From an uncultured Acidobacteriota bacterium (GTDB taxonomy: Bacteria; Acidobacteriota; Thermoanaerobaculia; Multivoradales; SZUA-115), in assembly GCA_963805975.1 (NCBI GenBank), contig CAWDVR010000001.1, forward strand, positions 758,106-822,105: a DNA stretch of 64,000 nucleotides, written 5' to 3'. The translations under genes were made by a program, and so were the position numbers. The notes under the pieces are model-generated. The model worked only from the letters and a program-made list of their open reading frames with translations. It had not been told where the DNA came from and searched no databases. Shown here in pieces: positions 1,863-18,591 of this stretch (positions within the stretch are counted from its first letter, which is position 1; each line of letters starts with the position of its first letter).

Positions 1863-4800
1863 GTGCCGCGCAACCCTCCCCTCACCGAGACTCTGATCTC
1901 CCGGCCTTCGGCCGTCGAGACCGTGCTGCTCGCGGCCTCGGCGGCGACCCCGCTCCTGCCCGCGCCGTGGGGTGCTCTCGCCCTGGTCGTGCTCGCGGCG
2001 CTCTGGTGGCGCCGCCGGCCCTCGCGCCGCGAGCTCGCCGTGGCCCTCCCGGCGCTGGCGCTCGCCGCCGTTCTCCTGGCGGCCGGCTGGCTCGCCTCGC
2101 GGCCGGACGTCCGCACCCTCGAAGCGTGGGACGTGGCCGCCACCCGCCAGTACGGGCGCCTGTGGGCGGAGCTGGACGACCTGGCGCGGGAGGCCCGGGA
2201 GGCGGTGGGCCGGGCGCCGGTGACGCGCGCCGAGCGCCAGGCCGCCTTCGCGCGCCTGGCCGAGGTGGCGACCCCCGGCGGAACCGACCGCGCTTCGGTG
2301 CTGCTGGTCGATCCGGACGGCGAGGCGAGCGCCTGGTCGGGGAGCGGCCTGCTGCACGAGCCCACGCCCGAGGAGCTGCCGCCCCGCGGCCGGCACTTCC
2401 GTGCCGGGTTCACGGCCGTGACGCTGATGGTGATCGAGCCGCTGGACGATTCGCGGCGCCCCTGGCGCGTGGTGGCGGGCAGGAGCTTCCCGACCGACCG
2501 CCTTCCCTTCCCGCCGCCGGGCGGCGAGGCGGACACCGACTTCCGCTGGTCGGTGGTGGAGGAGACGCGCGATCCGGCCGGCGCCGAGGGCCTCCGCCTG
2601 GCTCCGGCTCTCCTGCCGGCCATGGTGATCACCCCGCGCCCGCTGCTCGCCCGCGGTCTCGCGGAGGCGAGCCCGATCTGGGGGAGAGCAGCCTGGGCGG
2701 CGCTCGCCGCGGCCCTGCTGGCGGTAGTGGTGCTGCGGGGCGTGGGGCTCCTGCTCACCGGCGGGGCGCGTGGCAGCCACGCCGGCTCGCTGACGGCTCT
2801 GGCGCTCGCCGGCACGGCCGCCGCGGCCAGCGCCGCGGGTGCGCCGGGGACGGCGGTGGCGGCCCTGGGCCTCGGCGTGCTCCTCGCGGCCCTGGGCCTC
2901 GCCTGGCAGGCGCCGGAGATGCCGCCCTGGGCCACGGCGGTTGCGGGAGGCTCCGCCGCGCTCGCCGTAGGCTTCCTCGCCTGGCTCTTCCAGGAGGCGC
3001 TGGGGCCGCTCGATCTGGGCTCGGACCTCTGGGCCGGGACCGAAGTCTTCTGCCTCCGTCTCGCGGCCGGGGTCGCGGCCTTCGGCCTCCTGGCCCTGGC
3101 GGGCCGGCGGCGGAAGCCGAGTGTCGAAGCCTCGGTCGCTGGCTCCTCGGTCGGGGGAGGGGGCCATGCGCTCGCCTGGTGGGCGGCCGGCCTGCTACTC
3201 CTGGCGTCCCTCGCCGCCGACCGCCCGCCGATCGCGCTCCTCCTGCTGGCGCTCTCCGGCGTGGCGATCGCCCTGTGGCTCGCCCACCGGCGCCTGCTCG
3301 CCGAGGCGGGGTCGTTCGCCGCCTTCGTGGCCCTCGCCTGGATCACAGGTGCCGTGGGCTGGGAGGTGGCGTACCGCCAGCTCCTGCGGCTCGAGGTCGA
3401 GCGGCAGGTGCTGCCGCGGCTGGCGCCGCCGAGCAGCGCGGAGATGGACGCCGTCGCGAGCGAGGTCTCGGGTTTCCTCGATGCGCTGGACCTCGAGTCG
3501 CTGACCGCGCGCCCGCTCGACGGCATGGACCGCCGCGACCTGGCCTACGCCGTGTGGCGCCAGTCGCCGCTCGCCCGACGCAGTGCGCTCTCCGCCGTCA
3601 AGCTGGTGCCGGCCGACCCCGAGGTCCTTCCCAGCCTGGGGGCCTTTCCGGAGCGCACCGTCTTCTCCTTCGGCCTGCCCCTCTCCGATGCCGGGGAAGC
3701 GGTCTGGGAGCCCGCGAGCTCGCCGGACCCGGTGCTCCCGGCCTGGGACGATCTGCTGGTGAACGGCGAGGTCCGGCTGACGGCGGGCGGCAGGCCCTGG
3801 GGCACGGCCCGCTGGTGGCTGGTGCCGCGGCCGGGCTTCGGCCTGGGCCGGAGGGAGAGCGCCGAGCAGGTGGTGGTGGGCCTGCTGCGCGGCGCGCCCG
3901 GCGATCCCCAGTCGGCGATCGGCCTGCCCGAGCCGGTGCTCTACGCCCTCTACCCGGGCGACGGCAGGCCGCTGGTCTCACCCTGGCAGGACGAGCCGCC
4001 GGCGCCGGCGCCGGTGGTGGCCGGCGACCGCTTCTCCGGCCTGGTCGAAACGCCGGAGGGGCCCACCTGGGCGTTTGCGCGGCGCGGGGCCGACGGCTAC
4101 GAGGCTCTCTACCTGCCGCGGCTCCAGGGCCTGGAAGCGCCGGAGCGGGTGGGCACGGCGGCGGCCACCGCGCTGCTGTTCGTGGCCGTCGCGACCCTGA
4201 TCGCGCTGCTCCTGGCGCTGCCGCGGCCCGCCTTCCGCGACCTGGTGACCCGCGCCGTGCGCTCCTACTCGCGGCGGCTGCTGCTGGTGTTCACGGCGCT
4301 CCTGGTGGTGCCCTTCCTGCTCCTCGACCTGGTGCTGCTGCGCACGGTCGAGGCCTCGCTGTCCCGCGACCAGGAAGCGCGCGGCGAGCAGGCGATCGTC
4401 GCCGCGCAGCAGGCGGCGCTGGCCACGATCGCCGGCCAGGAGCCCGGCTTCGGCATCGACACGGCGCTCTCGACCGAGTACCTGAAGGACCTGTCGCGCC
4501 TGGTCGACCACGACGTCAACGTCTACTTCGGCTCGGCCTTCCTCTCCTCGTCGAGCGGCGAGCTGTTCACGGCGGGCCTCCTGCCGCGGCGCATTCCGGG
4601 CGAGGTCTACGCCCGGCTGGCGCTCGAGGGCTACGGCATCGCCGAGCGCACCAGCCGGGCCGTGGACACACCCTACCTCGAGCTCTACCGCCCCATGGCG
4701 CTCCCCGGCGCGGCCGAGGGCGAGGCGGACGAGCCGCGCATCTTCCTCTCGGTGCCGCTCCTGGCGCAGCAGGAGGAGGCGGCCGGGGTGCTGGCGGGCC

Positions 4801-6137
4801 TGCGGCGCCGCGTCGTGGTGGCCACCACCTCGCTCTTCGCGCTGCTGATCGCGGTCGGCGGCCGGCTGGCCCGCAACTTCACGAAGCCTTTGCAGGAGCT
4901 GGTCGAGGGCACGCGGCGGATCGCCGCCGGCGCGCCCTCGCTCGACCTCGCGCCCTCCGACCTCGAGCTCGCCGCGCTGGTCAAAGCCGTGGACGAGATG
5001 GCGCGGCGCATCGCGCGCTCGCGCGGCGAGCTGCTGCGCGAGAAGGCGGTGGTGGAGCGGATGGTCGAGAGCATCACCTCTGGCGTGGTGTCGCTCGACG
5101 CCCGCCACCGCGTGGTGATGCACAACCGGGTGGCGGCCGAGCTCCTGGGCGTGGCGATCGGCGACCAGCTCGAGCAGGTGGCGGCGGCGCGCGAGCGCCT
5201 GCGCCCGCTCTCGACCTTTCTCGCGAGCCTGCCCGCGGCGAGCGACGGCAATCCGCGGCGCGAGACCGTCCGCTTCGGCGGCTTCGCCGGGGGCGAACGG
5301 GAGTGGACGCTTGTCTGGGTGCCGCTGCCCGCGGTTTCCGGGGCGGGGGTTTCCGGGGCGAGTGTCTCCGGGGCGCCGGCCGAGGGCTCCGGGGAGCCCG
5401 CCGCGCTCCTGGTGGTGGAGGACGTGACCGAGGTGTTTCGCGGCCAGCGCCTCGCCGCCTGGGCCGAGATGGCGCGCATGATCGCCCACGAGATCAAGAA
5501 CCCGCTCACCCCCATCCGCCTCTCGGCCGAGCACATGCGCCAGGTGCGGGTCCGGGACCCCGAGCACTTCGACGAGATCTTCGAGCGCTGCACCACCAAC
5601 ATCCTGCACCAGGTGGACGAGCTGCAGCAGATCGCCTCGGAGTTCTCGACCTACAGCCGCATCCCGCGGATCGAGGTGCGCGAAGGCGATCTGCGGCCGG
5701 CGCTCGCGGCGCTGGTCGAAGGCTACCGGGCGGCGCCGCCGCCGGGGCTCGAGGTGGCGGGAACGCTGCCGGCGGAGCCGGTGGTGGTGCGTTTCGACGA
5801 GCGGCTGCTCTCGCGCGCGGTGCGCAACCTGCTCGAGAACGCGGTGCGCGCCGCCTCGGCCACCCGGGAGGTCAGGAACGGCGGCCGGGTGGAGCTGACG
5901 CTCGAGGCGCAGCCCGCGGCCGGCGAGGCGCGCCTCGCGGTGCTGGACACCGGGCCGGGCGTGGCGCCGGACCTCCTGCCGCGTATCTTCGATCCCTACT
6001 TCTCGACCCATGACACCGGCACCGGCCTCGGGCTGCCCATCGCGCGGCGCATCGTCGAAGAGCACGGCGGCACGATCGCGGCCCGCAACCGGCCGGGCGG
6101 CGGGCTCGAGGTGGAGATTAGAATCCCGCTCGCATGA
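1863..6137 (+). CDS. large membrane sensor histidine kinase, NtrY-like (polytopic N-terminus, HAMP, PAS, HisKA, HATPase_c)
   Basis: 1424 aa, GTG start with upstream GGGGAG. About 700 aa of hydrophobic helices precede a HAMP-like segment and a PAS-like segment. HisKA H-box is IAHEIKNPLTPIRLSAEH and the ATPase G2 box is GTGLGLPIARRIVEEHGG. Confidence 0.8.
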   Translation: MPRNPPLTETLISRPSAVETVLLAASAATPLLPAPWGALALVVLAALWWRRRPSRRELAVALPALALAAVLLAAGWLASRPDVRTLEAWDVAATRQYGRLWAELDDLAREAREAVGRAPVTRAERQAAFARLAEVATPGGTDRASVLLVDPDGEASAWSGSGLLHEPTPEELPPRGRHFRAGFTAVTLMVIEPLDDSRRPWRVVAGRSFPTDRLPFPPPGGEADTDFRWSVVEETRDPAGAEGLRLAPALLPAMVITPRPLLARGLAEASPIWGRAAWAALAAALLAVVVLRGVGLLLTGGARGSHAGSLTALALAGTAAAASAAGAPGTAVAALGLGVLLAALGLAWQAPEMPPWATAVAGGSAALAVGFLAWLFQEALGPLDLGSDLWAGTEVFCLRLAAGVAAFGLLALAGRRRKPSVEASVAGSSVGGGGHALAWWAAGLLLLASLAADRPPIALLLLALSGVAIALWLAHRRLLAEAGSFAAFVALAWITGAVGWEVAYRQLLRLEVERQVLPRLAPPSSAEMDAVASEVSGFLDALDLESLTARPLDGMDRRDLAYAVWRQSPLARRSALSAVKLVPADPEVLPSLGAFPERTVFSFGLPLSDAGEAVWEPASSPDPVLPAWDDLLVNGEVRLTAGGRPWGTARWWLVPRPGFGLGRRESAEQVVVGLLRGAPGDPQSAIGLPEPVLYALYPGDGRPLVSPWQDEPPAPAPVVAGDRFSGLVETPEGPTWAFARRGADGYEALYLPRLQGLEAPERVGTAAATALLFVAVATLIALLLALPRPAFRDLVTRAVRSYSRRLLLVFTALLVVPFLLLDLVLLRTVEASLSRDQEARGEQAIVAAQQAALATIAGQEPGFGIDTALSTEYLKDLSRLVDHDVNVYFGSAFLSSSSGELFTAGLLPRRIPGEVYARLALEGYGIAERTSRAVDTPYLELYRPMALPGAAEGEADEPRIFLSVPLLAQQEEAAGVLAGLRRRVVVATTSLFALLIAVGGRLARNFTKPLQELVEGTRRIAAGAPSLDLAPSDLELAALVKAVDEMARRIARSRGELLREKAVVERMVESITSGVVSLDARHRVVMHNRVAAELLGVAIGDQLEQVAAARERLRPLSTFLASLPAASDGNPRRETVRFGGFAGGEREWTLVWVPLPAVSGAGVSGASVSGAPAEGSGEPAALLVVEDVTEVFRGQRLAAWAEMARMIAHEIKNPLTPIRLSAEHMRQVRVRDPEHFDEIFERCTTNILHQVDELQQIASEFSTYSRIPRIEVREGDLRPALAALVEGYRAAPPPGLEVAGTLPAEPVVVRFDERLLSRAVRNLLENAVRAASATREVRNGGRVELTLEAQPAAGEARLAVLDTGPGVAPDLLPRIFDPYFSTHDTGTGLGLPIARRIVEEHGGTIAARNRPGGGLEVEIRIPLA

Positions 6138-7597
6138 GAGGCCGTCACCCGTCGTTCTCGGCGCTCGCCCAGGCCGCCGCACTGGCGGCGGCAGTGCTGG
6201 CGCTCGCGGCCTGCCCGGGCGGACGGGGGCGGCTCGAGAAGCCCGAGCGCTCCGTGCTCTGGGTGACGCGAGGCGGCACGCTCGACTACGCCGACTTCGC
6301 GGCCCTCGGGCAGCGGGGCGTGGGAGAGCTGTTCGTCGAGGCCGGGCGCCTCTCCTGGCAGGGCGCCAGCCCGCGCATCGAGCCGGTGCCGACTCTCTCC
6401 CTGCCGCGGCGTACCGAGGTCACGCTGGTGATCACCGGCGCCTGGCCCCAGGAAGAGCTGGAGGCCGGAGAGACCGCGGCGCGGCTCGCCGGGGAGCTGG
6501 CCAGGGTCGCGGCGCGTGCCCGCGAGGCCAATCTCGAGGCCCTGGGCTTCCACTTCGATGTCGGCGCCAGGCGCTCGCTCGCCGGCTACGGCGCGACGCT
6601 CGGGGCGCTGCGGCGCGAGCTCGAGCCGCCGGCCTTCGTGTCGGCGACCGTGGAGCGCACCTGGCTCGGCGAGAAGGCCCTTCCCGACCTGGCACGCGCG
6701 GTGGACTTCCTGGTGCCCTTCCTCTACGGCCAGCGGCCGGGCGAGCCCGAGGACGCCGCGGCCTGGGACCTGCGGCGGGTGGAGGAGAACCTGCGCCAGG
6801 TCGAGGCACAGGGCAGCCGCTACCTGGTCGGCGTGGTGACGCTGGCCCGTACCCTGGAGATCGGCGGCCGGGGCGCCGAGACCACCCGTGTGTCGCTGCC
6901 CGCGCTGGTGCGCAACCCGGCGCTCGAGCTGGCCATCGGCTTCAGCCTCGAGGGCCTCGACCGCTCGGTCTACCAGTTCAAGGCGCGGGAGGCGGTGACG
7001 GTCGGCGGGCTCGAGCTGAAGCGCGGGGCAGGCATCCGGGTGATGGGCCTCGCCACCCACCACGTGGAAGAGCTCGAGCGCCGGCTCGGGGCGCTGGACC
7101 TCGGGCGCAAGCTCGGCACCGCCTACTACCGTCTGGCCGGGCCCGAGGAGCGGATGTCGCTGTCGCTCGCCAACCTCGAGCTGGCCCTGGCGCCGGAGCC
7201 GGCCCTCGCCGCGCCGCACCTTCGCCTGCTCCCGGCCGGCAACCGGCGCTACACGGTGGAGGTCGAGAACCAGAGCTCCGAGCGCTCCGACGTGATGGTG
7301 CTCGCCGGCAACTTCGTCGAGCTGCGGGTGGCGGGCGGCACCTTCCTCCGTGCCGATCCCGGCGCCTTTCTTCGCTGGGAGCTCCTGGAGGAGCGCGGCG
7401 GCGAGCTGGTGCGCTCCTTCCGCCGCGCCACCGTGCTCCGTCTCTACGCGCCCATCCTCGACGGCGGCGAGACCCTGGCAAGCGGCGCGATCGACGTGAG
7501 CGGCGGCACGGTCACGGCCTCCGGCTCCTTCGTGGTGCCGGGCGGCAAGGCGGTGGCGGCGGTGGTGGACGTGGCGCCCTCGACCCGGCCCGAGTAA
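6134..7597 (+). CDS. putative lipoprotein, co-transcribed with the sensor kinase
   Basis: ATG overlaps the kinase stop codon (ATGA). N-terminus carries a lipobox-like LALAAC signal. 487 aa; I recognise no other domain. Confidence 0.55.
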   Translation: MRGRHPSFSALAQAAALAAAVLALAACPGGRGRLEKPERSVLWVTRGGTLDYADFAALGQRGVGELFVEAGRLSWQGASPRIEPVPTLSLPRRTEVTLVITGAWPQEELEAGETAARLAGELARVAARAREANLEALGFHFDVGARRSLAGYGATLGALRRELEPPAFVSATVERTWLGEKALPDLARAVDFLVPFLYGQRPGEPEDAAAWDLRRVEENLRQVEAQGSRYLVGVVTLARTLEIGGRGAETTRVSLPALVRNPALELAIGFSLEGLDRSVYQFKAREAVTVGGLELKRGAGIRVMGLATHHVEELERRLGALDLGRKLGTAYYRLAGPEERMSLSLANLELALAPEPALAAPHLRLLPAGNRRYTVEVENQSSERSDVMVLAGNFVELRVAGGTFLRADPGAFLRWELLEERGGELVRSFRRATVLRLYAPILDGGETLASGAIDVSGGTVTASGSFVVPGGKAVAAVVDVAPSTRPE

Positions 7598-7645
7598 CGA
7601 ACGCGGCGCAGGGCGGCCCAATCTTCCTCCAGAGGAGGTTTCACC

Positions 7646-10600
7646 ATGCCGCTACGCCGCACGGGTTTCCCGCGCTCCGGCCTTGCTCCGCTCGCCGCCG
7701 CCGTACTGCTCGCCTTCGCCTTCGCCTTCGCCTCCGCCGAGCCCGCCCGTGCCCAGACGTGCTGGGCGTACGTGAACACCCCGGCCTCGGCGCCGATCAG
7801 TTGCGTGGATCAGGGCGACCTCTCGCCCGGCTGCTTCTGGAATGGCGACTGCCACGACGATCTCGACCTTTCGGACTGCTGCACGACCATCCCCGGCGGT
7901 CCGCAGAGCGTCCTCCAGATGCACTCCGCCTGGCATAGCTGCTTCGGCGCCATCGGCGACTCGGACGGCGACAACCCGCCCATGCGGGGCAACCGTTGGT
8001 ACGCCTTCCATCGCCAGATCGAGCACGACTACAACCTGTGGCGCGAGAGCGGTAACTTCTGCAACCCCACGGCCGGCAGCCCCCAGGGGTGCAAGATCGA
8101 GTCGGTCGACTGGTGCCCGAATATGCTGCTGCCGTACGGCTTCGACTGCGACCTCGCGGCCGGCGGCACCGGCTGCGGCACCCAGGGCTTCGTCGCCGAC
8201 AACTCGGCCCAGGACTGTAACCCCACCCTCGGCAGCACCAATCCCTGCCGGCCCAACAACGCCGCCTGCCCCGGCTGCCAGGCCTTCCCGCAATGCCTGT
8301 TCCTGGGCGGCGCCGGCCCGGCGGCGTGCCCGCTGGCACCCAGCGCCTCCTGCTCGGGCACCGGCGTCAACCTGCCCCACACCGAGCTGGCGGACTTTCC
8401 GGACGTCGAGGAGCTGACCACGCTCCTGGACTCGAGCTTCCACGGCAACATGCACGGCGCCGTGGGCACCGCCGGCCCCTGCGGCGACATCAACAGCTCC
8501 GGCTGCTCGGTGCGCGATCCCATGTTCTGGCGCCTGCACAAGGCGATCGACGACGTGGTGCGCGCCTGGCAGGACATCAACGCCACCGACGTGATGGTGG
8601 TGGTCGACCGCTCGGGCAGCATGAACGAGCTGGACTCGACGGGCGACAGCAAGCTCACCGCCGCGCTCGAGGCCGCCGACCTCTTCGCCGACCTGATGGA
8701 GGACGCCCGCGCCGACGGCCAGACCAACCGCATCGGCGTCGTCTCCTACGCCTCGAACGCCGGCGACGCGGCGCGCAACCTGGCGCCGATCGCGGCCGGG
8801 CCCACGCTGCGCGATCCCGGCCAGCCGTTCCCCAATGTGCTCGCCGCGATCGGCGGCGCGGGCGGCGGCGGCTGCACGGGCATCGGCAGCGGCATCCAGG
8901 CGGCGGCCGACCAGATCTGCCCCGGGGGCGACTGCGGCGCCGTGCCCGATCCGCCGCCGGCCGGCACCAACCGCCGCAAGTCCATCCTGCTGCTGACCGA
9001 CGGCATCGAGAACGTGCCGCCGTGCCTGCAATCGGCCGGTCCCGCCGGCGCGACCTGCGGTGGCCAGTGCTTCGGCGCCACGCTCGATGCGACCCGGCTC
9101 TACGACACCCAGGTCTGCGCCGTGGGCTTCGGCGACGCCGGCTCGCTCAACGGCGATCTCCTGACCCTCTTCGCCGAGCGCCAGGGCGGCATCTACATGC
9201 AGAACCCGGCCCTCGACCCGGACGGCGAGTGGATCGATCTCAAGGACTTCTTCGCCAAGTGCTTCGGCCAGTTGACCGACGAGTTCCTGGGGCTCGATCC
9301 CAAGGGCATCCTCGCCCCCGGCCAGGCGGCCAGCGAGGCCATCGAGTACACCTCCTGCGGCGACGGCAAGCTGACCTTCGTCGGCGGCTGGAAGACGGCT
9401 GTCGACCGCGGCGAGCTGCGCCTGCTGATCCACGCCCCGAACGGCGACCTGGTGCGACCGGGCGCCGGCGTGGAGACCTCGACCCAGGCCACCTGGGACT
9501 TCTCCCGGCTGCGCCTGCCCTACGGCACGGCCTCGACCGGCCTCTGGCAGGCCCACCTCGTGCGCCCCCACCGGGCCTTCGTCAACGGTTTCACGAGCGA
9601 CGCCTTCGCCGACCCCAAAGCCGGAGTCGAGCTGGTGCGGCGCGAGATCCAGCGCCTGTGCCCGACGGGATGCAAGCGGGTGCTCTACTTCGAGGACCAG
9701 ACGCTCGGCACCTCGGTCTACGACAAGGCGATCCAGGTCGAGCTCGGCACGCGCCTCCTGGGCACAGTCTCCCGCACCAACCGGCCCGACGAGCTGGCGG
9801 GCCTGCTGCGCCGCGAGTGGGACCTGCTGGTCTACGCCCACCAGAAGGGCGAGGCGCCGGAGCCCTACGACGGCCCCCTTGCCGAGCGGATCTGCGGCGG
9901 CCAGCGCGCCATCCTGACCGACACCCGCGGCCAGGCCGCGGCCTCGATCCTCAAGTGCGCGGGCGCGGCCTACGACGAGGGCCGCAACCACAGGCTGCTG
10001 GCGGTGGACGGTGAGCTGCTCGCCGGCCAGCACAAGCTCCACGACCCCGGCCATGCGATCTGGAGCTATGGCCTGCGGCCCGCGGGGAGCACCGCCCAAG
10101 CGCGGCTGGACGGCCGGACCCACGGCATCGTGGCTGCGGTCCAGCGCGGGGCCGAGCAGCGCTGGTTCGTGGACGTGCTGGTGCGGGGCCTGAACAAGCT
10201 CGAGGCCCACAAGCCGGTGTCGCACTTCGAGACCGGCAGCGATCTGCTGCCGAGCGTGCGGATCTCGCCCTTCACCGTCACCGCCGGCGGCTTCGACCGC
10301 GTCCAGGCCAGGGTGGAGATCGAGCGCCCGCTCCTCGGCCTCGGCACGCTGCTGGCCCGCACCGGTCTCGCCAAGGAGGTGCGGATCGGCGAGGAGCGGC
10401 TCGACCCGCGCGCCGCCACGCTCCTGGCGCTCGAGCAGGCGCGCCGCGGGCCGGTGATCCCCACCACCACCGAGACCTACCCGCTGTTCGACGACGGTAC
10501 GAACGGCGACCTGGTGGCGGGCAACAACTACTTCTCGGCCCAGCTTCCGCGCGCCGCCTCGGCGGACGGCATGTACCGCTATCGCTACATCCTGGACCTC

Positions 10601-11242
10601 GAGAAGAACGGCTGCACCACGCGGCGCGAGCTGACGCAGTCGGTGTTCGTCGAGGTGGGTGTCGACCCCACGGCGAGCGGCGTACAGGCCACGCCGCACC
10701 AGCCCGGGGCCGCCGGGGGCTACGACGTGACGCTCACTCCCCGCGACCGGCTGGGCAACCTCTGGGGCCCCGGCCGTCCCGGCGCCATCCAGTGCCGCGC
10801 CGACGACGGCTGCCGCTGCGACGCAGGGAAGGTGACCGACCGCGGCGACGGCTCCTACGTGATCCCGGTGGCGGTCAAGGCGAACGCCCGGCAGTGCCGC
10901 ATCGACGCCTTCGGCACGGTCTTCGACCTCGCCTGGAACCGCCGGCCGGCCTCCTGCGCGGCGCTCCTCAAATCGCTCGACAATCCGCGCATCGACGGCG
11001 CACTGCGCAACAAGCTTCGCTTCAAGGTCGAGGCCGCCTGCGAGCAATGGCACGCCGTCGAGGGCGACTGGAGCCTGGCCACCACCCAGGCCAGCTCGAC
11101 CCTGGCCGAGGTGCTACACGAGATCGAGTCCCACGCCGGCGCCGACCTGCCGGCAGCCGACGTCGCGGAGCTGAAGCGACGAGTGCAGGAGCTGGCGAAA
11201 GAGGGCGGGCTCGAGGTGGGGGAGGCGCATCCGCATCACTGA
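7646..11242 (+). CDS. secreted multidomain protein: type-3 copper (tyrosinase-like) domain + von Willebrand factor A domain + ~700 aa uncharacterised C-terminal region
   Basis: Signal peptide MPLRRTGF...ASAEPARA. CuA-like histidines (MHSAWHSCFG ... WYAFHRQ) and a CuB-like motif (FHGNMHGAVG ... DPMFWRLHKAIDD). VWA with a MIDAS motif (VVVDRSGSMN ... LLLTDGIEN). Confidence 0.7.
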   Translation: MPLRRTGFPRSGLAPLAAAVLLAFAFAFASAEPARAQTCWAYVNTPASAPISCVDQGDLSPGCFWNGDCHDDLDLSDCCTTIPGGPQSVLQMHSAWHSCFGAIGDSDGDNPPMRGNRWYAFHRQIEHDYNLWRESGNFCNPTAGSPQGCKIESVDWCPNMLLPYGFDCDLAAGGTGCGTQGFVADNSAQDCNPTLGSTNPCRPNNAACPGCQAFPQCLFLGGAGPAACPLAPSASCSGTGVNLPHTELADFPDVEELTTLLDSSFHGNMHGAVGTAGPCGDINSSGCSVRDPMFWRLHKAIDDVVRAWQDINATDVMVVVDRSGSMNELDSTGDSKLTAALEAADLFADLMEDARADGQTNRIGVVSYASNAGDAARNLAPIAAGPTLRDPGQPFPNVLAAIGGAGGGGCTGIGSGIQAAADQICPGGDCGAVPDPPPAGTNRRKSILLLTDGIENVPPCLQSAGPAGATCGGQCFGATLDATRLYDTQVCAVGFGDAGSLNGDLLTLFAERQGGIYMQNPALDPDGEWIDLKDFFAKCFGQLTDEFLGLDPKGILAPGQAASEAIEYTSCGDGKLTFVGGWKTAVDRGELRLLIHAPNGDLVRPGAGVETSTQATWDFSRLRLPYGTASTGLWQAHLVRPHRAFVNGFTSDAFADPKAGVELVRREIQRLCPTGCKRVLYFEDQTLGTSVYDKAIQVELGTRLLGTVSRTNRPDELAGLLRREWDLLVYAHQKGEAPEPYDGPLAERICGGQRAILTDTRGQAAASILKCAGAAYDEGRNHRLLAVDGELLAGQHKLHDPGHAIWSYGLRPAGSTAQARLDGRTHGIVAAVQRGAEQRWFVDVLVRGLNKLEAHKPVSHFETGSDLLPSVRISPFTVTAGGFDRVQARVEIERPLLGLGTLLARTGLAKEVRIGEERLDPRAATLLALEQARRGPVIPTTTETYPLFDDGTNGDLVAGNNYFSAQLPRAASADGMYRYRYILDLEKNGCTTRRELTQSVFVEVGVDPTASGVQATPHQPGAAGGYDVTLTPRDRLGNLWGPGRPGAIQCRADDGCRCDAGKVTDRGDGSYVIPVAVKANARQCRIDAFGTVFDLAWNRRPASCAALLKSLDNPRIDGALRNKLRFKVEAACEQWHAVEGDWSLATTQASSTLAEVLHEIESHAGADLPAADVAELKRRVQELAKEGGLEVGEAHPHH

Positions 11243-11279
11243 GCGGTGGAGCCTGTGACGCTGGCCCTCGAGTCGCGGC

Positions 11280-12558
11280 TCAGGTTCCGTCCACCACGAG
11301 GCTCCAGGCGGAGAGGTCGCCGGTCTCGAAGCTGTCCTCGAAGATCGATGAGGGCGTGGCGTAGGCCACGAAGGCGCCGGTGCCCCACTCGATCTGGTTG
11401 TCGGCAGGCGGGGTGAGGGTGGCGGCGAAGGAGACGTCGCCCGCTTCGTTGATCGCCACTCCGCCGCCGAAGACCGGGCTCGAATCGTTCTGGTCGACGC
11501 GCGCCGTGCCGAGGTCGGTGGGCAGGAGGTCGTGCTCGCGGACCACGCGCGCGGAGCATGGTGCCGTCGCCCACGAAGACGGCGCGCAGGCCACTCTCGT
11601 CGAAAGCGCGGAAGGCGACCAGACCGGTCTCGTTGACGGCGGGCGCGAAGAACTCGAGCTCCGAGAGGTCGGGCCCGGACTCGACCGCGATGGTGACGGT
11701 GGTCACTCCGTCGGACAGGAACACGCCACGCCCGCCGGCGACCAGGGTGGCGAGGAAGACCACGCGGCCGTCGTTGGTGAGCGCCACGCTGTTGTCGAAA
11801 CGCGCGTAGGGCGAGGCGGCGTTGGAATCGACGTCCTCGGCGATCAGCACCGAGCTGCCGTTGGGTTCGAAGATGCGGATCTGGTCCGGCCGGCTCTCTG
11901 CGATCTCCCCCGCGGCGCCGAGCCGCACTTTGCCGGCGATCTGCCGCGCGTCGTTGAAGGCGGGGGTGAAGAGGAAGGAGTAGGGGCTCCCCACCACGAC
12001 GCCGGCTTCGGCGGCGTGGATCGGCACGGTGGAGGTGCCGTCGTAGGAGACCCAGGTCTGGCCCGAGCCCGAGAAACCGGCCCGGTAGCCCACCTGCCCG
12101 AGGTCGTTGATCGAGGGCGACCCCCATGAGGAAGCACCCAGGGGCAGGTTGGTGAGGAAGCCGGCGGTGTCGGTCTTCGAGTCGTAGGTGTAGAGGCCTT
12201 GGGGGCTCGAGAACGCCTCGTCCCACACCGCGACGCCGGCGTTGTTCAGGCCCACGGAGAGCACGAAGGCCTCCTCGTCGCTCTGGTAGACGATCTCCCC
12301 CTGGGCCTGGCCTCCGAACCACACCCCCTGGCCGGTCGAGCTTGGCAGCACCTCCAGGTCGAAGGCCATCTGTCCCAGGTCGTTCAGCCGTGGCGTGGTG
12401 TTCGAGAAGAAGGCGCTCCCCGGCAGGTTGAAGGCGCCGCTGAAGTTGGCTCTCGCCTGGAGCTCGAAGGTTTCGTAGGTCGGGACCTCGGCCGTGGCGC
12501 CAGAGGCTAGCGCCGTGGCGAGGAGAAAGCTGGAGGCAGATCGCAGGGTGGGTTTCAG
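11280..12558 (-). pseudogene. FG-GAP/beta-propeller secreted protein paralog, frameshifted (candidate pseudogene or sequencing error)
   Basis: Two overlapping minus-strand ORFs (11236..12369 and 11280..11594) rejoin after a 1-nt shift near 11570 in a CGCGCGCG run. The signal-peptide-like N-terminus (LKPTLRSASSFLLATALASG) lacks an ATG; only a CTG with an AAGGAG 6 nt upstream is available. The C-terminus ends IFEDSFETGDLSAWSLVVDGT, as in the other motif-bearing proteins. Confidence 0.5.
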
Positions 12559-12612
12559 AAGGGGCTCCTTCCCGAAGACGTCTGGATCCTAGCGCAGCGC
12601 CGGGAGGGTGCC

Positions 12613-15129
12613 GTGCGCCCGGCCGCGGCACGCCCAACTGCTAAGCTTCGACAGATGTCGTTGCTCCCGAAGCTGCCGGCTGCCGTGCTGGGCGCCGGCC
12701 TCGCCGCCTCGATCCTCGCGCCCGTGCTCTCGTCCGCGCAGCCTCTGGCGCTGCGCCTGCCGGTGCTCTCGCTCCGCGAGGCGGCGATCACGGTCGCCCC
12801 GACCCTTGCCGCGAGGCCCGATGCGAACGCCGAGGACGTCGCCGAGCCGCTACCCCCGAGCTCCGAGGTGCTACCGCGGGCGCTCGCCCTGGAAGAGGAG
12901 GCGGAGCGGACCCGTGCCGAGCTCGCGCAGTCGTTCGGCCAGGCTGCCGGGGACCCGGAGCTGGCGGAGCTCCAGGAAGGCTTCGCGCGCCTGCGGCGGC
13001 GGCTCGCCGCGGTGGTGGGCGAAGGACCGATCGACGGCGACCGCGTGGCGCGGCTCCGGGCGCGGGCCCGGAAGGCGGGCGCCCATCTCGAGCAGGAGCT
13101 GGAGGCCACCTACGGCCGCTACCGCCGGCTGGAGCAGCTCGCCTCCGACTGGGACGGCCACCGCGACTTCTTCGCCCGCTGGCAGGCGGCGCTGCTCGCC
13201 GACCCCAGCTACGGCTCGCTGCGCGACGAGCTCACCGAGACCCGCCAGCGCATCGAGGTCGTGCGCGCCGAGATCGCCGCCGCGGTGCCGGCGGCCCGCG
13301 AGGCGCAGCAGCGGGCGCAGGGCCTGGTGCGGGAGCAGCGCGAGATCGAGGTCGAGGTCGAGCGCACCCTGGACGAGTGGGAGGCGAGCCTGCGGCGCCC
13401 GAGCGGCCCGGCCATGGTCACGCCGGCCTTCCTGGCCGAGCTCGAGCAGACTCAGGTCCTCGAACAGATTGGGGTCAGCGTGCCTCGCGATACCAGGCTC
13501 ACGCCCCCCGGGCTGGATGCCGATTTTCTGCGAGACCACGCGTTCACCCTCCTGCTCCAGATCGCGGTGGGCCTGCTGGTCGCTTTCGGAGCGCGCTGGC
13601 TGCACCACGCGGCAGGCCCGGAAGACCCCTGGCACGGCCTCCTCGCACGCCCCTGGGCTCTGGGCCTGTTCGCTGCCGTGGCCGGCTTCGGCTCGCTCTA
13701 CGACCCGGCGCCGGGCGTGTGGCGACTGCTGCCGGCGGTGCTGCTCGCGGTCTCGCTGGCCCGCTTGGCCGGCGCCACCTTCACCCGGCCGCGCGCCCGC
13801 TGGGCGGTCTACCTGCTCGCCCTGCTGCACGTCGCCTTCGAGGGCGCGGAGACCCTGGGCCTGGCCGAGCCGGTGGCGCGGCTGGTGCTGCTCTCCCTGG
13901 CCCTCGTGCCCCTCGCCCTGCTGCTACCGAGCGTGCTCCGCGAGCATCGCGAGCACGACCGCCTGACGCTCTTCGGCGTGGCGCTGCGGCTGGGAGTGGC
14001 GCTCCTGGCGGTGCTCGCTCTGGCCGAGGTGGCCGGTTTTCATCCGCTGGCGCGCTGGTTCTACCAGGCCGGCCTGCGCAGCACGATCGTGATCTTCGTC
14101 ACCTCCTTCATCCTGCTGCTGGCGGCCAAGCTCAGCCGCCTCCTGCTGGCCTCGCCGGCCGTTGCCCGCCGTCGCCTCCTGTCCCAGCGGCGCGAGGAGC
14201 TGGCACGGCGCTTCCGGCGCGCGCTCACGGTGGTGGTGGTCGCGGTCGCGGCGCTGTTCATGGCCGATATCTGGCACCTGGCGGACTCGCCGTACTCGGC
14301 GTGGCTGTCGCTCCTACGCTGGAACGCGTCCTTCGGCAGCTACCGGGTGACCGCCGGGCAGGCGCTCTTCGCCGCCGGGGCGCTCTACCTGGCCCTGGTG
14401 GTCTCCTGGCTGCTGCGCGCCGCGCTCGACGAACGGGTGGCGCACGGCGGCGGCCTGGACCGCGGCGCCGGCGACTCGGTGAAGACCCTGATCCGCTACT
14501 CGTTCATCGTCGTCGGGTTCTTTCTCGCCCTCTCGCTCCTGGGGATCGACCTCTCGAACTTCGCGATCCTGGCCGGCGCCTTCGGCGTGGGCATCGGTTT
14601 CGGGCTGCAGAACGTGGTCAACAACTTCGTCAGCGGCCTGATCCTGCTCTTCGAGCGACCGGTGCGCGCCGGTGACTCGGTGGTGGTGGCGGGCGACAGC
14701 GGGGTCATCCGGCGGATCGGCCTGCGCTCGACGGTGATGCAGACCGGCGACCGCGCGGAGATCATCGTGCCGAACAGCCAGTTGATCGCCGAGAAAGTGA
14801 CCAACTGGACGCTGTCCTCGCGCTCCGCCCGCTTGGCGGTGCCGGTGCGCGTTGCCTACGGCAGCGACCTGCGCAAAGTGCAGGAGATCCTGGAAACGCT
14901 CGCCCGGGAGCACCCCAAGGTCTTGCCGGAGCCCAAGCCCCAGGGCCAGATCGTGGCGCTGGGGGAGAGCGCCATCGCTTTCGAGCTGCGCGCCACCGTG
15001 GCCGACGTCGAGCAGCGGGGGGACGTGCAGCACGACCTCATGGCCGCCGTGGCCGAGCGTTTCGACGCCGAGGGCATCGCCATCCCGTTCCCGCAACGGG
15101 AGGTGCATATACAGAAGGAGGATGGATGA
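12613..15129 (+). CDS. mechanosensitive ion channel, MscS/MscK family, with a large N-terminal periplasmic domain
   Basis: 838 aa; GTG start with GGGAGGG 4-5 nt upstream. The C-terminal MscS core motif is GFGLQNVVNNFVSGLILLFERPVRAGD. Multiple TM helices and a signal peptide. Confidence 0.8.
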   Translation: MRPAAARPTAKLRQMSLLPKLPAAVLGAGLAASILAPVLSSAQPLALRLPVLSLREAAITVAPTLAARPDANAEDVAEPLPPSSEVLPRALALEEEAERTRAELAQSFGQAAGDPELAELQEGFARLRRRLAAVVGEGPIDGDRVARLRARARKAGAHLEQELEATYGRYRRLEQLASDWDGHRDFFARWQAALLADPSYGSLRDELTETRQRIEVVRAEIAAAVPAAREAQQRAQGLVREQREIEVEVERTLDEWEASLRRPSGPAMVTPAFLAELEQTQVLEQIGVSVPRDTRLTPPGLDADFLRDHAFTLLLQIAVGLLVAFGARWLHHAAGPEDPWHGLLARPWALGLFAAVAGFGSLYDPAPGVWRLLPAVLLAVSLARLAGATFTRPRARWAVYLLALLHVAFEGAETLGLAEPVARLVLLSLALVPLALLLPSVLREHREHDRLTLFGVALRLGVALLAVLALAEVAGFHPLARWFYQAGLRSTIVIFVTSFILLLAAKLSRLLLASPAVARRRLLSQRREELARRFRRALTVVVVAVAALFMADIWHLADSPYSAWLSLLRWNASFGSYRVTAGQALFAAGALYLALVVSWLLRAALDERVAHGGGLDRGAGDSVKTLIRYSFIVVGFFLALSLLGIDLSNFAILAGAFGVGIGFGLQNVVNNFVSGLILLFERPVRAGDSVVVAGDSGVIRRIGLRSTVMQTGDRAEIIVPNSQLIAEKVTNWTLSSRSARLAVPVRVAYGSDLRKVQEILETLAREHPKVLPEPKPQGQIVALGESAIAFELRATVADVEQRGDVQHDLMAAVAERFDAEGIAIPFPQREVHIQKEDG

Positions 15130-17699
15130 TTCGGAAGGTGATCGTCTGCAACGTGGTGCTCGGTTTCGCCCTGGCCGGCTCGCTGCCGGCCGACGAGCCG
15201 GCGAAAGACGCCAGCGCTCTGCCCACCGTGGCGGCGAAGACCTCCGGGCTGACGGCCAGGCCCGGCCTCTTGACGCTCTACGCCGACGAGGCACGGGGCA
15301 AGCTGTGGCTCGAGGTGCCGCCGGCCGGCAAGAACGGCGTGGTGGCCGAGCTGCTGTACGTCGAGGGCATCACCACCGGCGTGGGCTCGAACCCGATCGG
15401 GCTCGATCGCGGCCAGCTCGGCGACGGCCGGGTGGTGACCCTGCGGCGGGTGGGCGGCCGGCTGCTGATCGAGGAGCCCAATCTCTTCTTTCGGGCGTTG
15501 TCGAGCGATCCGCGCGAGGTGGAGAGCGTGCGTCAGTCGTTCGCCACCTCGGTGCTGTGGGGCGCCGAGCTCGCGGCCCTCGACGCGGACGGCCGCGCAC
15601 TGGTGGACTTCACACCCTTCCTGCTGCGCGACGCGCACGGCGTGGCCGCGACGCTCAAGCGCGCGGGCCAGGGCGCCTACGCGCTCGACGCCGGCAGGAG
15701 CGCCGTGGACCTCGCCTCCTGCCTGGTGTTCCCCGAGAACCTCGAGCTCGAATCGCTGCTGACCTTCAGTGCCGCCGAGCCCGGGCGGCTGGTCTCCGAC
15801 GTGCTTGCGACCCCCGAGCTGATCACCGTCACCCTCCACCAGTCCTTCCTCCGCCTGCCCGAGCCGGGCTACCAGCCGCGGCGCTTCGACCCCCGCGCCG
15901 GCTCCTTCTCGATCAGCTTCCAGGATTACGCGGCGCCGCTCGGCGCGCCCATCGAGACGCGCTGGATCGTCCGCCACCGCCTGGAGAAGGTGGACCCCAG
16001 GGCGGCGCGCTCGCGGGCCAAGAAGCCGATCGTCTACTACGTGGACCCCGGCGCGCCCGAGCCGGTGAAGAGCGCGCTGATCGAGGGCGCCTCGTGGTGG
16101 GCGCGGGCGTTCGAGGCAGCGGGCTTCATCGACGGCTTCCGCGTCGAGGTGCTGCCGGAAGGGGCCCATCCGCTCGACGCGCGCTACAACGTGATCCAGT
16201 GGGTGCACCGCTCGACGCGCGGCTGGTCCTACGGCGGCGGCCTCATCGACCCGCGCACCGGCGAGATGCTCAAGGGTCACGTCACCCTGGGGTCGCTCCG
16301 CGTGCGGCAGGACCGGCTGCTGTTCGAGGGCCTGCTCGGCACCGAGCACACCGGGAGCGGCGCCGACGACGACCCGACCCGGCTCGCGCTGTGGCGGATC
16401 CGGCAGCTCGCGGCGCACGAAGTGGGCCACGCGCTGGGCTTCTCGCACAATTTCGCGGCCTCGACCTACGGCGGCCGTGCCTCGGTGATGGACTACCCGG
16501 CGCCGCTGGTGGGCATCACCCCCGCCGGCGAGCTCGACCTGTCCCGGGCCTACGGCGTGGGGGTCGGCGCCTGGGACGTGCACGCGGCGCGCTTCGCCTA
16601 CTCCCAGTTCCCGCCCGGCGCGGACGAGGCCGGCGAGCTCGAGCGCCTGTCGGCGGAAGCGGTGGAGAAGGGCCTGCTGTTCCTCTCCGACGCCGACGCC
16701 AGGCCCCTGGGCTCGGCCCATCCCCTGGCGCATCTATGGGACAACGGCAGCGACCCGGTGGCGGCGCTCGAGCACACGATGCGCGTGCGGGCGGTGGCGC
16801 TCTCCCGCTTCGGCAAGCGCAACCTCGCGGCCGGCCGGCCGCTCGCCCTGCTCGAGGAGGTGCTGGCGACCGTCTACCTCCATCACCGCTACCAGGTGGA
16901 GGCGACCTCCAAGCTGGTGGGTGGCGAGGACTACCGCTACGGCGTCAACGGCGATGCGCAGCCGGCGGCGCGGCCGGTCGACGGGGACACCCAGCGGCGG
17001 GCCCTCGCCGCCGTGCTCTCGACTCTCGCCCCGGCGGCGCTCGACCTGCCGGAGGAGGTGCTGGGGCTGCTCTTGCCGCGGCCCGCGGACTACGAGCCCT
17101 CGATCGAGCAGTTCGCCTCGGCCACCTGGCCGGCGTTCGACGCTCTGGGCGCGGCGGCCACCGCCGCGGACCTCGCGGTGGCGCCGCTCGTCGAGCCACG
17201 GCGGGCGGCGCGGCTGGTGGACCAGCACCGCCGCGAGGCCTCGCTGCCGGGTCTGGAGGAAGTGGTCGCGGCCCTGGTCGAGCGCGTCTTCGAGCGTACC
17301 CCCGCGCCGCCGCGGCTGACCGAGATCCAGCGCACCGTGCAGGCGGTGGTGGCTTCACGGCTGATCGGCCTCGCCGGCGACCGCTCGACCACTCCCGCGG
17401 TGCGCGCGCGGGTGGGTGCCGCCCTCGCCGATCTGCAACAGCGACTGCGTCTGCCGGTCGATTTGCTCGTGCTGGATGACGAGGGCGAGAGCGCGTTTCG
17501 CGCGTACCTGGCCGCCGAGATCAGCCGCTTCCTGGAGCGGCCGGCTGCACCGGTGGAACGAGTGCTGCCCGCGCCGCCCGATCCGCCGCCCGGCAGCCCG
17601 ATCGGAGCGGCCACGGCGGGCGGCGGCCCGGGGTACGAGGCATGGCGCCTCGCGGACGACGACGGTTGCTCGCTCGGACGGATGGGGGATGGCCGCTAG
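15126..17699 (+). CDS. secreted zinc-dependent metalloprotease (metzincin, HExxHxxGxxH)
   Basis: 857 aa. ATG overlaps the MscS stop (ATGA). Signal peptide present. Zinc motif is HEVGHALGFSHNF. Confidence 0.75.
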   Translation: MIRKVIVCNVVLGFALAGSLPADEPAKDASALPTVAAKTSGLTARPGLLTLYADEARGKLWLEVPPAGKNGVVAELLYVEGITTGVGSNPIGLDRGQLGDGRVVTLRRVGGRLLIEEPNLFFRALSSDPREVESVRQSFATSVLWGAELAALDADGRALVDFTPFLLRDAHGVAATLKRAGQGAYALDAGRSAVDLASCLVFPENLELESLLTFSAAEPGRLVSDVLATPELITVTLHQSFLRLPEPGYQPRRFDPRAGSFSISFQDYAAPLGAPIETRWIVRHRLEKVDPRAARSRAKKPIVYYVDPGAPEPVKSALIEGASWWARAFEAAGFIDGFRVEVLPEGAHPLDARYNVIQWVHRSTRGWSYGGGLIDPRTGEMLKGHVTLGSLRVRQDRLLFEGLLGTEHTGSGADDDPTRLALWRIRQLAAHEVGHALGFSHNFAASTYGGRASVMDYPAPLVGITPAGELDLSRAYGVGVGAWDVHAARFAYSQFPPGADEAGELERLSAEAVEKGLLFLSDADARPLGSAHPLAHLWDNGSDPVAALEHTMRVRAVALSRFGKRNLAAGRPLALLEEVLATVYLHHRYQVEATSKLVGGEDYRYGVNGDAQPAARPVDGDTQRRALAAVLSTLAPAALDLPEEVLGLLLPRPADYEPSIEQFASATWPAFDALGAAATAADLAVAPLVEPRRAARLVDQHRREASLPGLEEVVAALVERVFERTPAPPRLTEIQRTVQAVVASRLIGLAGDRSTTPAVRARVGAALADLQQRLRLPVDLLVLDDEGESAFRAYLAAEISRFLERPAAPVERVLPAPPDPPPGSPIGAATAGGGPGYEAWRLADDDGCSLGRMGDGR

Positions 17700-18591
17700 G
17701 AAGGCCCGACCCGTTGCGCCGGTGGCGCGCGCGCGGCCGGCGCGACGCTGGCTGCCGTTCGCCCTGGGCGGTGCGCTGGCGGCGGCCGGGCTGGCGCTGG
17801 CCGCCGGTCTCGGGCTCGGAGGCAGCCGTGCCGGCGAGACTCAGGCGGCTCCCCCGGCGCCCCCTCCGAGCTTGCCGAGGGCGGCTCGGCTGCGGGTGGA
17901 GGTAGTGGCCACCTACCCCCACGACCCGCAGGCTTTTACCCAGGGCCTGATCGAGAAGGGCGGCATCCTCCTGGAGAGCACGGGTCTCTATGGCGGTTCG
18001 GGCGTGCGCCGCGTGGAGCTCGAGACCGGCAAGGTCCTCGCGGAGGCGCGCCTGCCGCGCACGCTCTTCGGCGAGGGCTTGGCATGGGTGGACGCACCGG
18101 GGAAGGCAGGGCGGCTGGTGCAGCTCACCTGGCAGGAGGGCAAGGCCTTGGTGTGGGACGCGGCGAGCTTCCGGCCCGAGGGCGAACATCAGTACCAGGG
18201 CGAGGGTTGGGGCCTGTGCTTCGACGGCCGCCGCTTCGCGATGAGCGACGGCAGCGATCTCCTCACCTTCCGGGACGCCGACACCTTTGCCACGCTCTCC
18301 CGCGTGCAAGTCACGCGGGACGGCCTGCCCGTGGGCAGCCTGAACGAGCTCGAGTGCGTGGGGGAGGAGATCTACGCCAACCGCTGGCAGTTCGAGGAGA
18401 TCGTGCGGGTGGACGCCGCCAGCGGGAGGGTGACGGCGACCATCGACGCCTCGGGCCTGCTCACCCCCGCCGAGAGAGACGGTACGGATGTCCTGAACGG
18501 CATCGCCTACCGTGCGAAGACCGGCACGTTCCTCCTCACCGGCAAGCTCTGGCCGAAGGTGTTCGAGGTCCGGTTCGTCCCGGTGCCGTAG
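17689..18591 (+). CDS. glutamine cyclotransferase (plant/bacterial-type glutaminyl-peptide cyclase, beta-propeller)
   Basis: 300 aa. Start overlaps the protease stop by 11 nt. Signal/TM segment present. Family-typical motifs are YPHDPQAFTQGL, LESTGLYGGSGVRRVELETGKVL and LNGIAY. Confidence 0.75.
   Translation: MAARKARPVAPVARARPARRWLPFALGGALAAAGLALAAGLGLGGSRAGETQAAPPAPPPSLPRAARLRVEVVATYPHDPQAFTQGLIEKGGILLESTGLYGGSGVRRVELETGKVLAEARLPRTLFGEGLAWVDAPGKAGRLVQLTWQEGKALVWDAASFRPEGEHQYQGEGWGLCFDGRRFAMSDGSDLLTFRDADTFATLSRVQVTRDGLPVGSLNELECVGEEIYANRWQFEEIVRVDAASGRVTATIDASGLLTPAERDGTDVLNGIAYRAKTGTFLLTGKLWPKVFEVRFVPVP

Follow-up and report, generated by a model that had tools for sequence, protein, structure and literature searches.

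A Secreted Protein Joining a Hemocyanin/Prophenoloxidase-Type Dicopper Domain to a VWA Domain and Stalk: A Predicted Tethered Oxidase From an Uncultured Acidobacteriota Bacterium

The T3Cu-VWA-Stalk Gene

The window analyzed here is a 64,000-nucleotide stretch (~72% GC) from an uncultured Acidobacteriota bacterium of the Thermoanaerobaculia (GenBank assembly GCA_963805975.1, contig CAWDVR010000001.1, positions 758,106 to 822,105). It contains a gene for a secreted 1198-aa protein in which a type-3 copper (T3Cu, dicopper) domain is joined to a von Willebrand A (VWA) domain and a long adhesin-like stalk. From the sequence, the protein is predicted with moderate confidence to be a tethered extracytoplasmic phenol or catechol oxidase, Sec-exported and disulfide-rich, and it is called the oxidase below. 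The features of the gene are given with the evidence for them in parentheses.

7631–7638, plus strand: Shine-Dalgarno sequence AGAGGAGG, 7 nt before the ATG (sequence)
7646–11242, plus strand: complete open reading frame (ORF) of 1198 aa plus stop, T3Cu-VWA-stalk protein (ORF; GC content at third codon positions, GC3, 0.94; ratio of non-synonymous to synonymous substitution rates, dN/dS, ~0.25)
7646–7753, plus strand: Sec-type signal peptide, aa 1–36, predicted cleavage ARA/QTCW (sequence, homolog N-termini)
7754–8581, plus strand: type-3 (dicopper) domain, aa 37–312, with ~13 conserved Cys (homolog alignment, structure model, profile matches)
7910–8056, plus strand: helices of the first copper site (CuA), aa 89–137, with H93 (7922–7924), H97 (7934–7936) and H122 (8009–8011) (alignment, model)
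8267–8296, plus strand: C208-x2-C211-x5-C217 (CPGCQAFPQC), nearly invariant, in the insert between CuA and CuB (119/120 homologs)
8405–8581, plus strand: helices of the second copper site (CuB), aa 254–312, with H266 (8441–8443), H270 (8453–8455) and H298 (8537–8539) (Pfam, alignment, model)
8582–9280, plus strand: VWA domain, aa 313–545, with Cys-rich inserts and a complete metal ion-dependent adhesion site (MIDAS), D321-x-S323-x-S325 (8606–8620), T411 and T451-D452 (Pfam, alignment, profile)
9281–9595, plus strand: beta-jelly-roll/PPC-like domain, aa 546–650
9608–9985, plus strand: five-stranded alpha/beta (flavodoxin/GATase1-like) domain, aa 655–780
9998–10945, plus strand: three immunoglobulin (Ig)/macroglobulin (MG)-like beta-sandwich domains, aa 785–1100, an adhesin-like stalk (model; FdeC, invasin, PrgB, Sap, alpha-2-macroglobulin)
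10955–11239, plus strand: clade-specific three-helix tail, aa 1104–1198, with two conserved Cys, LHEIESH and H1195-P-H-H1198 (11228–11239) (model, homologs)

The ORF is a real gene. Its ribosome-binding site was graded strong, its codon-position GC (0.69/0.52/0.94) matched the pattern of the neighboring genes, and in comparison with the 84%-identical ortholog at locus L001 the dN/dS was similar in each domain. The motifs quoted in an earlier sequence-only reading of this DNA were all recovered in the translation, namely MHSAWHSCFG (aa 92–101), WYAFHRQ (aa 118–124), FHGNMHGAVG (aa 265–274), DPMFWRLHKAIDD (aa 291–303), DRSGSM (aa 321–326) and TDG (aa 451–453). That reading had allowed that two genes might have been mis-assembled into one. 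We give a negligible probability to an artefact in which an adjacent tyrosinase gene and VWA gene were joined by mis-assembly or a sequencing frameshift, even though the homolog of one relative, L008, occupies two ORFs. The architecture was continuous in at least 120 homolog clusters drawn from many independent assemblies and from finished genomes, the CuB helix passed straight into VWA strand beta1 in all homologs, and GC3 and dN/dS were uniform along the gene. The fusion recurred in over 100 assemblies of independent origin, among them the chromosome of Bradyrhizobium sp. TZ2 and Tahibacter soli, and the ORF was therefore not regarded as mis-assembled. At L008, a Thermoanaerobaculaceae metagenome-assembled genome (MAG), the 62%-identical homolog (P0093, 729 aa) lay in two overlapping ORFs (9836–12109 and 11745–13730), which points to an assembly error or else to a frameshift (pseudogene).

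A signal peptide had also been proposed from the sequence, and it proved to be of the Sec type. The mature N-terminus, QTC[WF]xY, was kept across the family, while the N-terminal regions of the sampled homologs differed among themselves. Tat export, prompted by R4-R5, was rejected, as the twin arginine did not recur in the N-termini of the sampled homologs; the lack of a common twin-arginine motif points to Sec export of the oxidase as an unfolded apo-protein.

Type-3 Copper Domain

Conservation was scored on an alignment of 120 homologs, and structure predictions were made on two separate fragments of the protein. The six putative copper ligands, H93, H97, H122, H266, H270 and H298, were kept in 118–120 of the 120 homologs, and W96, W118, F294, D281, D291, W295, D302 and ~13 Cys were conserved as well, which bears out the two copper sites with six His in all and the Cys-rich N-terminal region of the sequence-only reading and answers its call for a check of the ligands in orthologs. 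In the confident structure model the six His were placed on four long helices, each copper site being predicted to draw two His from one helix and the third from a second helix of a four-helix bundle. The modeled fold resembled solved type-3 copper proteins. For type-3 copper sites, Aguilera et al. (2013) describe an aromatic residue four positions before the third His in both sites and an Asp four positions after the third CuB His. Four residues before the third CuB ligand an aromatic residue (F294) was invariant, as was the Asp four residues after that ligand (D302); at the corresponding CuA position, invariant W118 replaced Phe.

The CuA site had been described as tyrosinase-type, a label that did not survive. 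Its spacing, H93-x3-H97-x24-H122, is of the arthropod/beta-subclass type. In the classification of Aguilera et al. (2013; PMC3658974), alpha- and gamma-sites, including those of all bacterial tyrosinases examined, follow the pattern H1(n)-H2(8)-H3, the second His is displaced in the beta-subclass only, and bacteria have the alpha-subclass only. A classical assignment fails because the H2(8)H3 spacing needs a His at position 113, nine residues before the third ligand, where the residue is Met113. A profile scan with Pfam Tyrosinase (PF00264), which the earlier reading had suggested, gave a divided result: the score of 29.9 bits exceeded the cut-off of 22.6, and the alignment covered the CuB half only (aa 262–310, profile positions 170–213). 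With the MelC2 equivalog model NF047834 the score was 12.4 bits, the cut-off being 450. The copper domain is no classical alpha-subclass bacterial tyrosinase, and its CuA site is hemocyanin/prophenoloxidase (PPO)-type.

The best structural and profile matches of the copper domain were arthropod hemocyanin, hexamerin and PPO. When its profile was compared with PDB sequences, the best matches were arthropod PPO/hemocyanin chains (top, 4yzw, E = 1.3e-3); the 4yzw alignment paired ‘emHtaWHecfG...rgqrWyafHrq’ with ‘lhHwhWHlvyp...RGElFyymHqQ’, and H93-x3-H97 aligned to HxxWH in PPO8, PPO1 and PPO2. The individual domain E-values of the arthropod matches were >1, so that the affinity is weak on sequence alone, and a single-sequence PDB search returned marginal CuB matches only (E 0.23). 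The arthropod likeness is treated here as a structural and motif resemblance, ancestry not being proven. The oxidase shares with arthropod hemocyanin/PPO a four-helix dicopper core in which, at both sites, one helix bears H-x3-H and another bears a single His, and the aligned CuA motif HxxWH...RGxx[WF]YxxHxQ of the best PDB profile matches. It differs in that neither Hemocyanin_N nor Hemocyanin_C was detected by Pfam, and whereas the arthropod proteins are cytosolic and have no signal peptide, the oxidase is secreted, Cys-rich, bacterial and fused to a VWA domain and stalk. The H-x3-H type of CuA site is not confined to the VWA fusion, since P0167 and P0180, two secreted bacterial proteins that lack VWA, share the CuA motif HxxWH...FxFH.

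Hexamerins have lost the copper-ligand His. The closest structures of the oxidase include these proteins and non-enzymatic hemocyanins, a point that weighs against an oxidase function and would suit a non-catalytic hemocyanin/hexamerin-like module, binding O2 reversibly or serving a structural role inside a large surface adhesin. We consider such a module very improbable, as all six His, like the second-shell residues, are invariant in a family with members down to ~44% identity, and it is not obvious what purpose an O2 carrier would serve on a bacterial protein that is secreted.

Two Cys features of the domain were also considered. The C208-x2-C211-x5-C217 insert may form structural disulfides, or may be a redox, metal-binding or Cu(I) site. 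A Cys-His thioether was rejected for C99, which lies two residues after H97; the thioether of fungal and molluscan enzymes has a C-x-H layout, and because the order of C99 and H97 differs from it, a disulfide is likelier for C99.

VWA Domain and C-Terminal Stalk

The VWA domain, proposed earlier with an intact MIDAS, was recognized by Pfam VWA_2 (PF13519) at 32.9 bits, above the cut-off of 27. Among the 120 homologs the MIDAS residues D321 and D452 were invariant and S323, S325, T411 and T451 nearly so; the MIDAS is complete and is predicted to bind a ligand in a metal-dependent manner. The family profile matched the solved VWA domains of 4rck, complement factor B, CLCA1, SpaC and mussel PTMP1. 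Like the MIDAS VWA proteins (complement factor B, CLCA1, the pilus tip adhesins SpaC/RrgA, and mussel PTMP1), to which its profile matches were significant, the oxidase has the complete DxSxS...T...D set, and its VWA domain is coupled to a module that is catalytic or adhesive; unlike them, its partner module is a dicopper oxidase and its VWA domain carries extra Cys-rich inserts. Only ~8 residues separated the CuB helix (...HKAIDDVVRAWQDIN) from VWA strand beta1 (DVMVVVDRSGSM), and the junction was retained in relatives whose copper domains are only 31–40% identical.

The long C-terminus, left without assignment in the sequence-only reading, comprises ~650 aa and was modeled (aa 546–1198) with a mean predicted local distance difference test score (pLDDT) of 92.6 as a jelly-roll, an alpha/beta domain, Ig-like sandwiches and a helical tail. 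Foldseek top matches of this region were tandem-Ig adhesins and S-layer proteins (FdeC, invasin, PrgB, Sap and bacterial alpha-2-macroglobulin). No catalytic fold was recognizable in the region by model and Foldseek, and no catalytic motif was recognized in the alpha/beta domain (aa 655–780). The Ig/MG-like part contained the motif DDGTNGDL..NNY, with a below-threshold match to choice-of-anchor X. The helices of the tail spanned aa 1104–1186 in the model, and the protein ended in ...GEAHPHH. From the model, the C-terminal region is read as a probable spacer, adhesion or oligomerization scaffold.

The rigid, universally conserved junction and the adhesin-like stalk invite a second explanation. 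Close to the anchored cross-linking or melanizing oxidase of the sequence-only reading, itself a plausible role, it holds that the protein is a cross-linking or ‘glue’ enzyme whose MIDAS captures an acidic motif on a matrix or surface protein while the dicopper site turns tyrosines into DOPA/quinone, hardening the biofilm or cell-surface matrix. In mollusks, byssus and shell matrices contain both VWA proteins and tyrosinases, although this is an analogy only. No conserved neighboring substrate or matrix gene was found, and the active site would have to be open enough for a protein-bound Tyr; we regard the glue enzyme as possible but rather unlikely, and the broader prediction of a tethered phenol or catechol oxidase is preferred.

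A Widespread Family With a Fixed Architecture

A word-indexed search returned 158 homolog clusters, and the 120 listed spanned 74–100% of the query at 43–84% identity, with the exception of the partial matches P0093 (53%) and P0109 (69%). Among the named sources were Thermoanaerobaculia, Pyrinomonadaceae, Candidatus Angelobacter, Lysobacterales (including Tahibacter soli) and Bradyrhizobium sp. TZ2, the nearest relatives being Thermoanaerobaculia MAGs. The search for the same fusion in other genomes, which the sequence-only reading had recommended, was thus positive in Acidobacteriota, Lysobacterales and Bradyrhizobium. When the copper domain was searched against 1.84 billion representative proteins, 81 matches were found at E <= 1e-3. 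The full-length copper-domain matches were nearly all 900–1600 aa, and all but one of the long matches scanned with Pfam had a VWA domain; the exception, P0143 (572 aa), had no Pfam match. No clear stand-alone version of the T3Cu domain was seen among the matches examined from these 81.

T3Cu-VWA-stalk is the fixed architecture of a widespread family of at least 158 clusters, and not the exceptional fusion that had been supposed. The retention of VWA next to copper domains only 31–40% identical indicates that the fusion is old. Source annotations of the members read ‘vWA domain-containing protein’ or ‘hypothetical’. No literature on a bacterial tyrosinase-VWA fusion was found; papers on molluscan shell or byssus were the only ones retrieved, and there the two occur as separate proteins. 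Bacterial tyrosinases had been characterized beforehand as ~300-aa enzymes with a separate caddie, a picture that is too narrow: three bacterial tyrosinase architectures are described in a review, none of them like T3Cu-VWA-stalk (PMC9454253). The latter would be a fourth, and the family belongs with the type-3 copper oxidases; it is not a new kind of system.

The classical bacterial tyrosinases, i.e., Streptomyces MelC2 with its caddie MelC1, the pro-tyrosinases of Verrucomicrobium, Ralstonia and Burkholderia with a C-terminal lid, and the core enzyme of Bacillus megaterium, share with the oxidase a CuB motif matching Pfam Tyrosinase and a bacterial extracytoplasmic setting. The oxidase differs from them in lacking the CuA pattern H(n)H(8)H, in its far sub-threshold MelC2 score, in Sec-type rather than Tat export, and in being ~four times larger with an architecture outside the three described (PMC9454253). 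Nor was a caddie recognized in its two flanking genes, p487 and p377, which had no Pfam match above curated cut-offs in a general Pfam scan, the caddie family not being searched by name. A periplasmic or secreted T3Cu domain within a larger protein is also found in PvdP, the Pseudomonas pyoverdine-maturation tyrosinase, and in TSP3-, RTX- and Big_12-linked proteins (P0167, P0180, P0170). These multidomain proteins have other accessory domains and no VWA, and PvdP lies in a biosynthetic cluster whereas the oxidase gene does not.

Lineage-specific C-terminal additions were observed in several members: DsbA/thioredoxin (P0017, P0021, P0023, P0025, P0026), P_proprotein (P0068, P0071, P0075, P0079), cohesin (P0013), and Peptidase_S8 with PPC and CARDB (P0080). 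An extracytoplasmic location fits these DsbA/thioredoxin, P-domain, cohesin and subtilisin additions. The DsbA fusions, which occur in Pyrinomonadaceae, could couple thiol oxidation to copper or quinone chemistry. No paralog of the oxidase was found elsewhere in the 64-kb window (E <= 1e-2 to 1e-3).

His Tails and YtkA/MauG Genes

Of the 120 homologs, 49 had an HxH motif within their last 15 residues, whereas only 1% of the internal windows in these proteins contained one, and at least two His were found in the last 12 residues of 52 of the 78 homologs of 1100–1280 aa. The helical tail of the window protein, with LHEIESH and two Cys, was conserved within its own clade. Short forms (~1060–1090 aa) ended right after the last Ig-like domain and had no His tail. 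Downstream of such tail-less forms (L004–L007, L009, L011 and L015–L017) a YtkA-like gene and then a MauG-like gene were found at all nine loci with downstream sequence, the L004 contig ending after the first downstream gene. The YtkA-like protein (PF13115) is 130–147 aa long with invariant MPxHxHG and LLxMxGxW motifs, and the second gene encodes a di-haem enzyme of the MauG/MbnH family (PF03150). Stop and start codons often overlapped (e.g., L006, 13195–13587 and 13293–14813; L015, 6728–7147 and 7144–8418), and the two genes are probably translationally coupled. Neither gene stood beside a His-tailed form at any of eight loci examined (the window and seven others), and no YtkA-like gene or di-haem peroxidase was detected elsewhere in the window (E <= 1e-2 to 1e-3).

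YtkA/CtaK proteins have been implicated in building extracytoplasmic copper centers (PMC13344008), and MauG/MbnH enzymes modify partner proteins, one of them copper-binding (PMC11951088). HxH tails and the YtkA/MauG pair were never found together, which suggests copper capture in cis or in trans. We infer that HxH copper capture, by a cis tail or a trans YtkA-like protein, replaces the metallation role of the missing caddie.

Haem proteins recurred near members of the family, both as these MauG-like genes and as cytochrome c-type proteins. The latter lay downstream of P0047 (L018, 7143–8942) and upstream of P0090 (L014, 4952–6517), and comprised a multihaem Cytochrome_C554/MtrC-like protein and a faint Cytochrome_CBB3 match; the homologs at these two loci were His-tailed.

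Proposed Function

In the proposed mechanism, the apo-protein would leave the cell unfolded through Sec, and oxidative folding and loading with two Cu would take place outside the cytoplasm. The C-terminal HxH tail probably aids copper loading, a role that the downstream-encoded YtkA-like Met/His protein appears to take over in tail-less relatives. The loaded dicopper site would bind O2 as a side-on peroxide and convert a phenolic or catecholic substrate into a quinone. A carboxylate on a protein or polymer may serve as the ligand of the MIDAS metal, and MIDAS and Ig-like stalk together would hold the oxidase on a surface, matrix, polymeric substrate or partner protein instead of leaving it free in solution.

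Several points besides the non-enzymatic relatives of the copper domain weigh against this proposal. Copper binding, O2 activation and substrate are inferred for every family member; Pfam Tyrosinase reaches CuB only, and Hemocyanin_M scored 13.6 bits, below its cut-off of 20.8; the complementarity of His tails and YtkA-like genes is confounded by phylogeny and comes from a small sample in which the tail-less forms may be one clade; and around the window gene and the genes of its close relatives no partner or substrate gene proved to be conserved.

A bolder version of the proposal would make the family a fourth class of bacterial type-3 copper enzyme, in which a hemocyanin/PPO-type dicopper site and a MIDAS work as one unit, the MIDAS docking an acidic macromolecule and the copper site oxidizing its aromatic residues. 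Copper would come from the HxH tail or, in trans, from a YtkA-like chaperone, and the MauG-like enzyme may equip the tail-less clade with a protein-derived cofactor. This version is speculative and we regard it as doubtful; if true, the arthropod hemocyanin/phenoloxidase copper site would have in this family a candidate relative from bacteria.

A part in regulating the turnover of phenolics and the storage of carbon in soils and wetlands has been discussed for bacterial type-3 copper oxidases (PMC9454253). Known bacterial enzymes fall into three small architectures, and soil Acidobacteriota, Lysobacterales and Bradyrhizobium hold a much larger version, predicted to be surface-tethered, which surveys based on hidden Markov models overlook since the label they mostly give it is ‘vWA domain-containing protein’. 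Both the CuA site and the fold, closest to those of arthropod hemocyanin/PPO, bear on the origin of that branch of the superfamily: an H-x3-H CuA, reported absent from bacteria in the 2013 classification (PMC3658974), is present in the T3Cu-VWA family. The distribution of HxH tails and YtkA/MauG genes makes it possible to test how a dicopper enzyme that is exported acquires its metal when no caddie is present, and genetics is feasible in two cultured hosts, Tahibacter soli BL and Bradyrhizobium sp. TZ2.

Genomic Neighborhood

Three genes adjoin or closely precede the oxidase gene.

1863–6137, plus strand: 1424-aa HAMP-PAS-HisKA-HATPase kinase (Pfam)
6134–7597, plus strand: 487-aa lipoprotein p487, lipobox LALAAC, its start overlapping the kinase stop, with a sub-threshold DUF3142 match
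11236–12369, minus strand: 377-aa ORF p377, convergent, overlapping the oxidase stop by 7 nt

The upstream sensor kinase and overlapping lipoprotein of the sequence-only reading were present as described, except that no specific signal was found for calling the kinase NtrY-like; its ~1000 N-terminal residues had no Pfam match. The oxidase gene begins 48 bp downstream of the pair, and no terminator-like site was found between p487 and the oxidase gene, the sole plus-strand match lying inside the p487 coding sequence. Synteny of the oxidase with the kinase and lipoprotein was seen at L001 only (84% identity) and was lost at 75% identity; at eight other loci the neighbors were unrelated to this pair. 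A functional tie to the kinase and lipoprotein was therefore rejected, and the neighborhood, shared with one 84%-identical relative only, says little on function.

The unterminated gap is one of the observations that would fit a role in copper/redox homeostasis, either as a CueO-like periplasmic oxidase of catecholate siderophores or Cu(I), or as a copper-buffering or sensing protein tied to the upstream kinase. His-rich tails are common in the family, and the relatives’ operon contains a YtkA-like protein and a MauG/MbnH-family enzyme, both of families linked to copper sites. These accessory genes are, however, equally explained as chaperones for a copper enzyme, the kinase synteny holds in one close relative only, and the adjacent genes that were examined included neither cop nor cus genes. 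A homeostatic role is accordingly rated improbable, more so than the glue enzyme though less so than a non-catalytic module, and the tethered phenol or catechol oxidase is retained as the preferred reading.

Downstream, p377 gave sub-threshold matches to the MXAN_5453 family and the choice-of-anchor NxxGxxAF repeat; its GC3 of 0.83 was below that of its neighbors, and no signal peptide was evident at the called start. The syntenic block in common with L001 was completed by an MscS-family channel (12613–15129) and a urocanase (133–1812). Further along, a glutaminyl-cyclase ORF (17416–18591, plus strand) overlapped the preceding Met-zincin (DUF4953/DUF5117) gene (15126–17699) by ~280 nt, and the true start of the cyclase gene is probably further downstream than listed.

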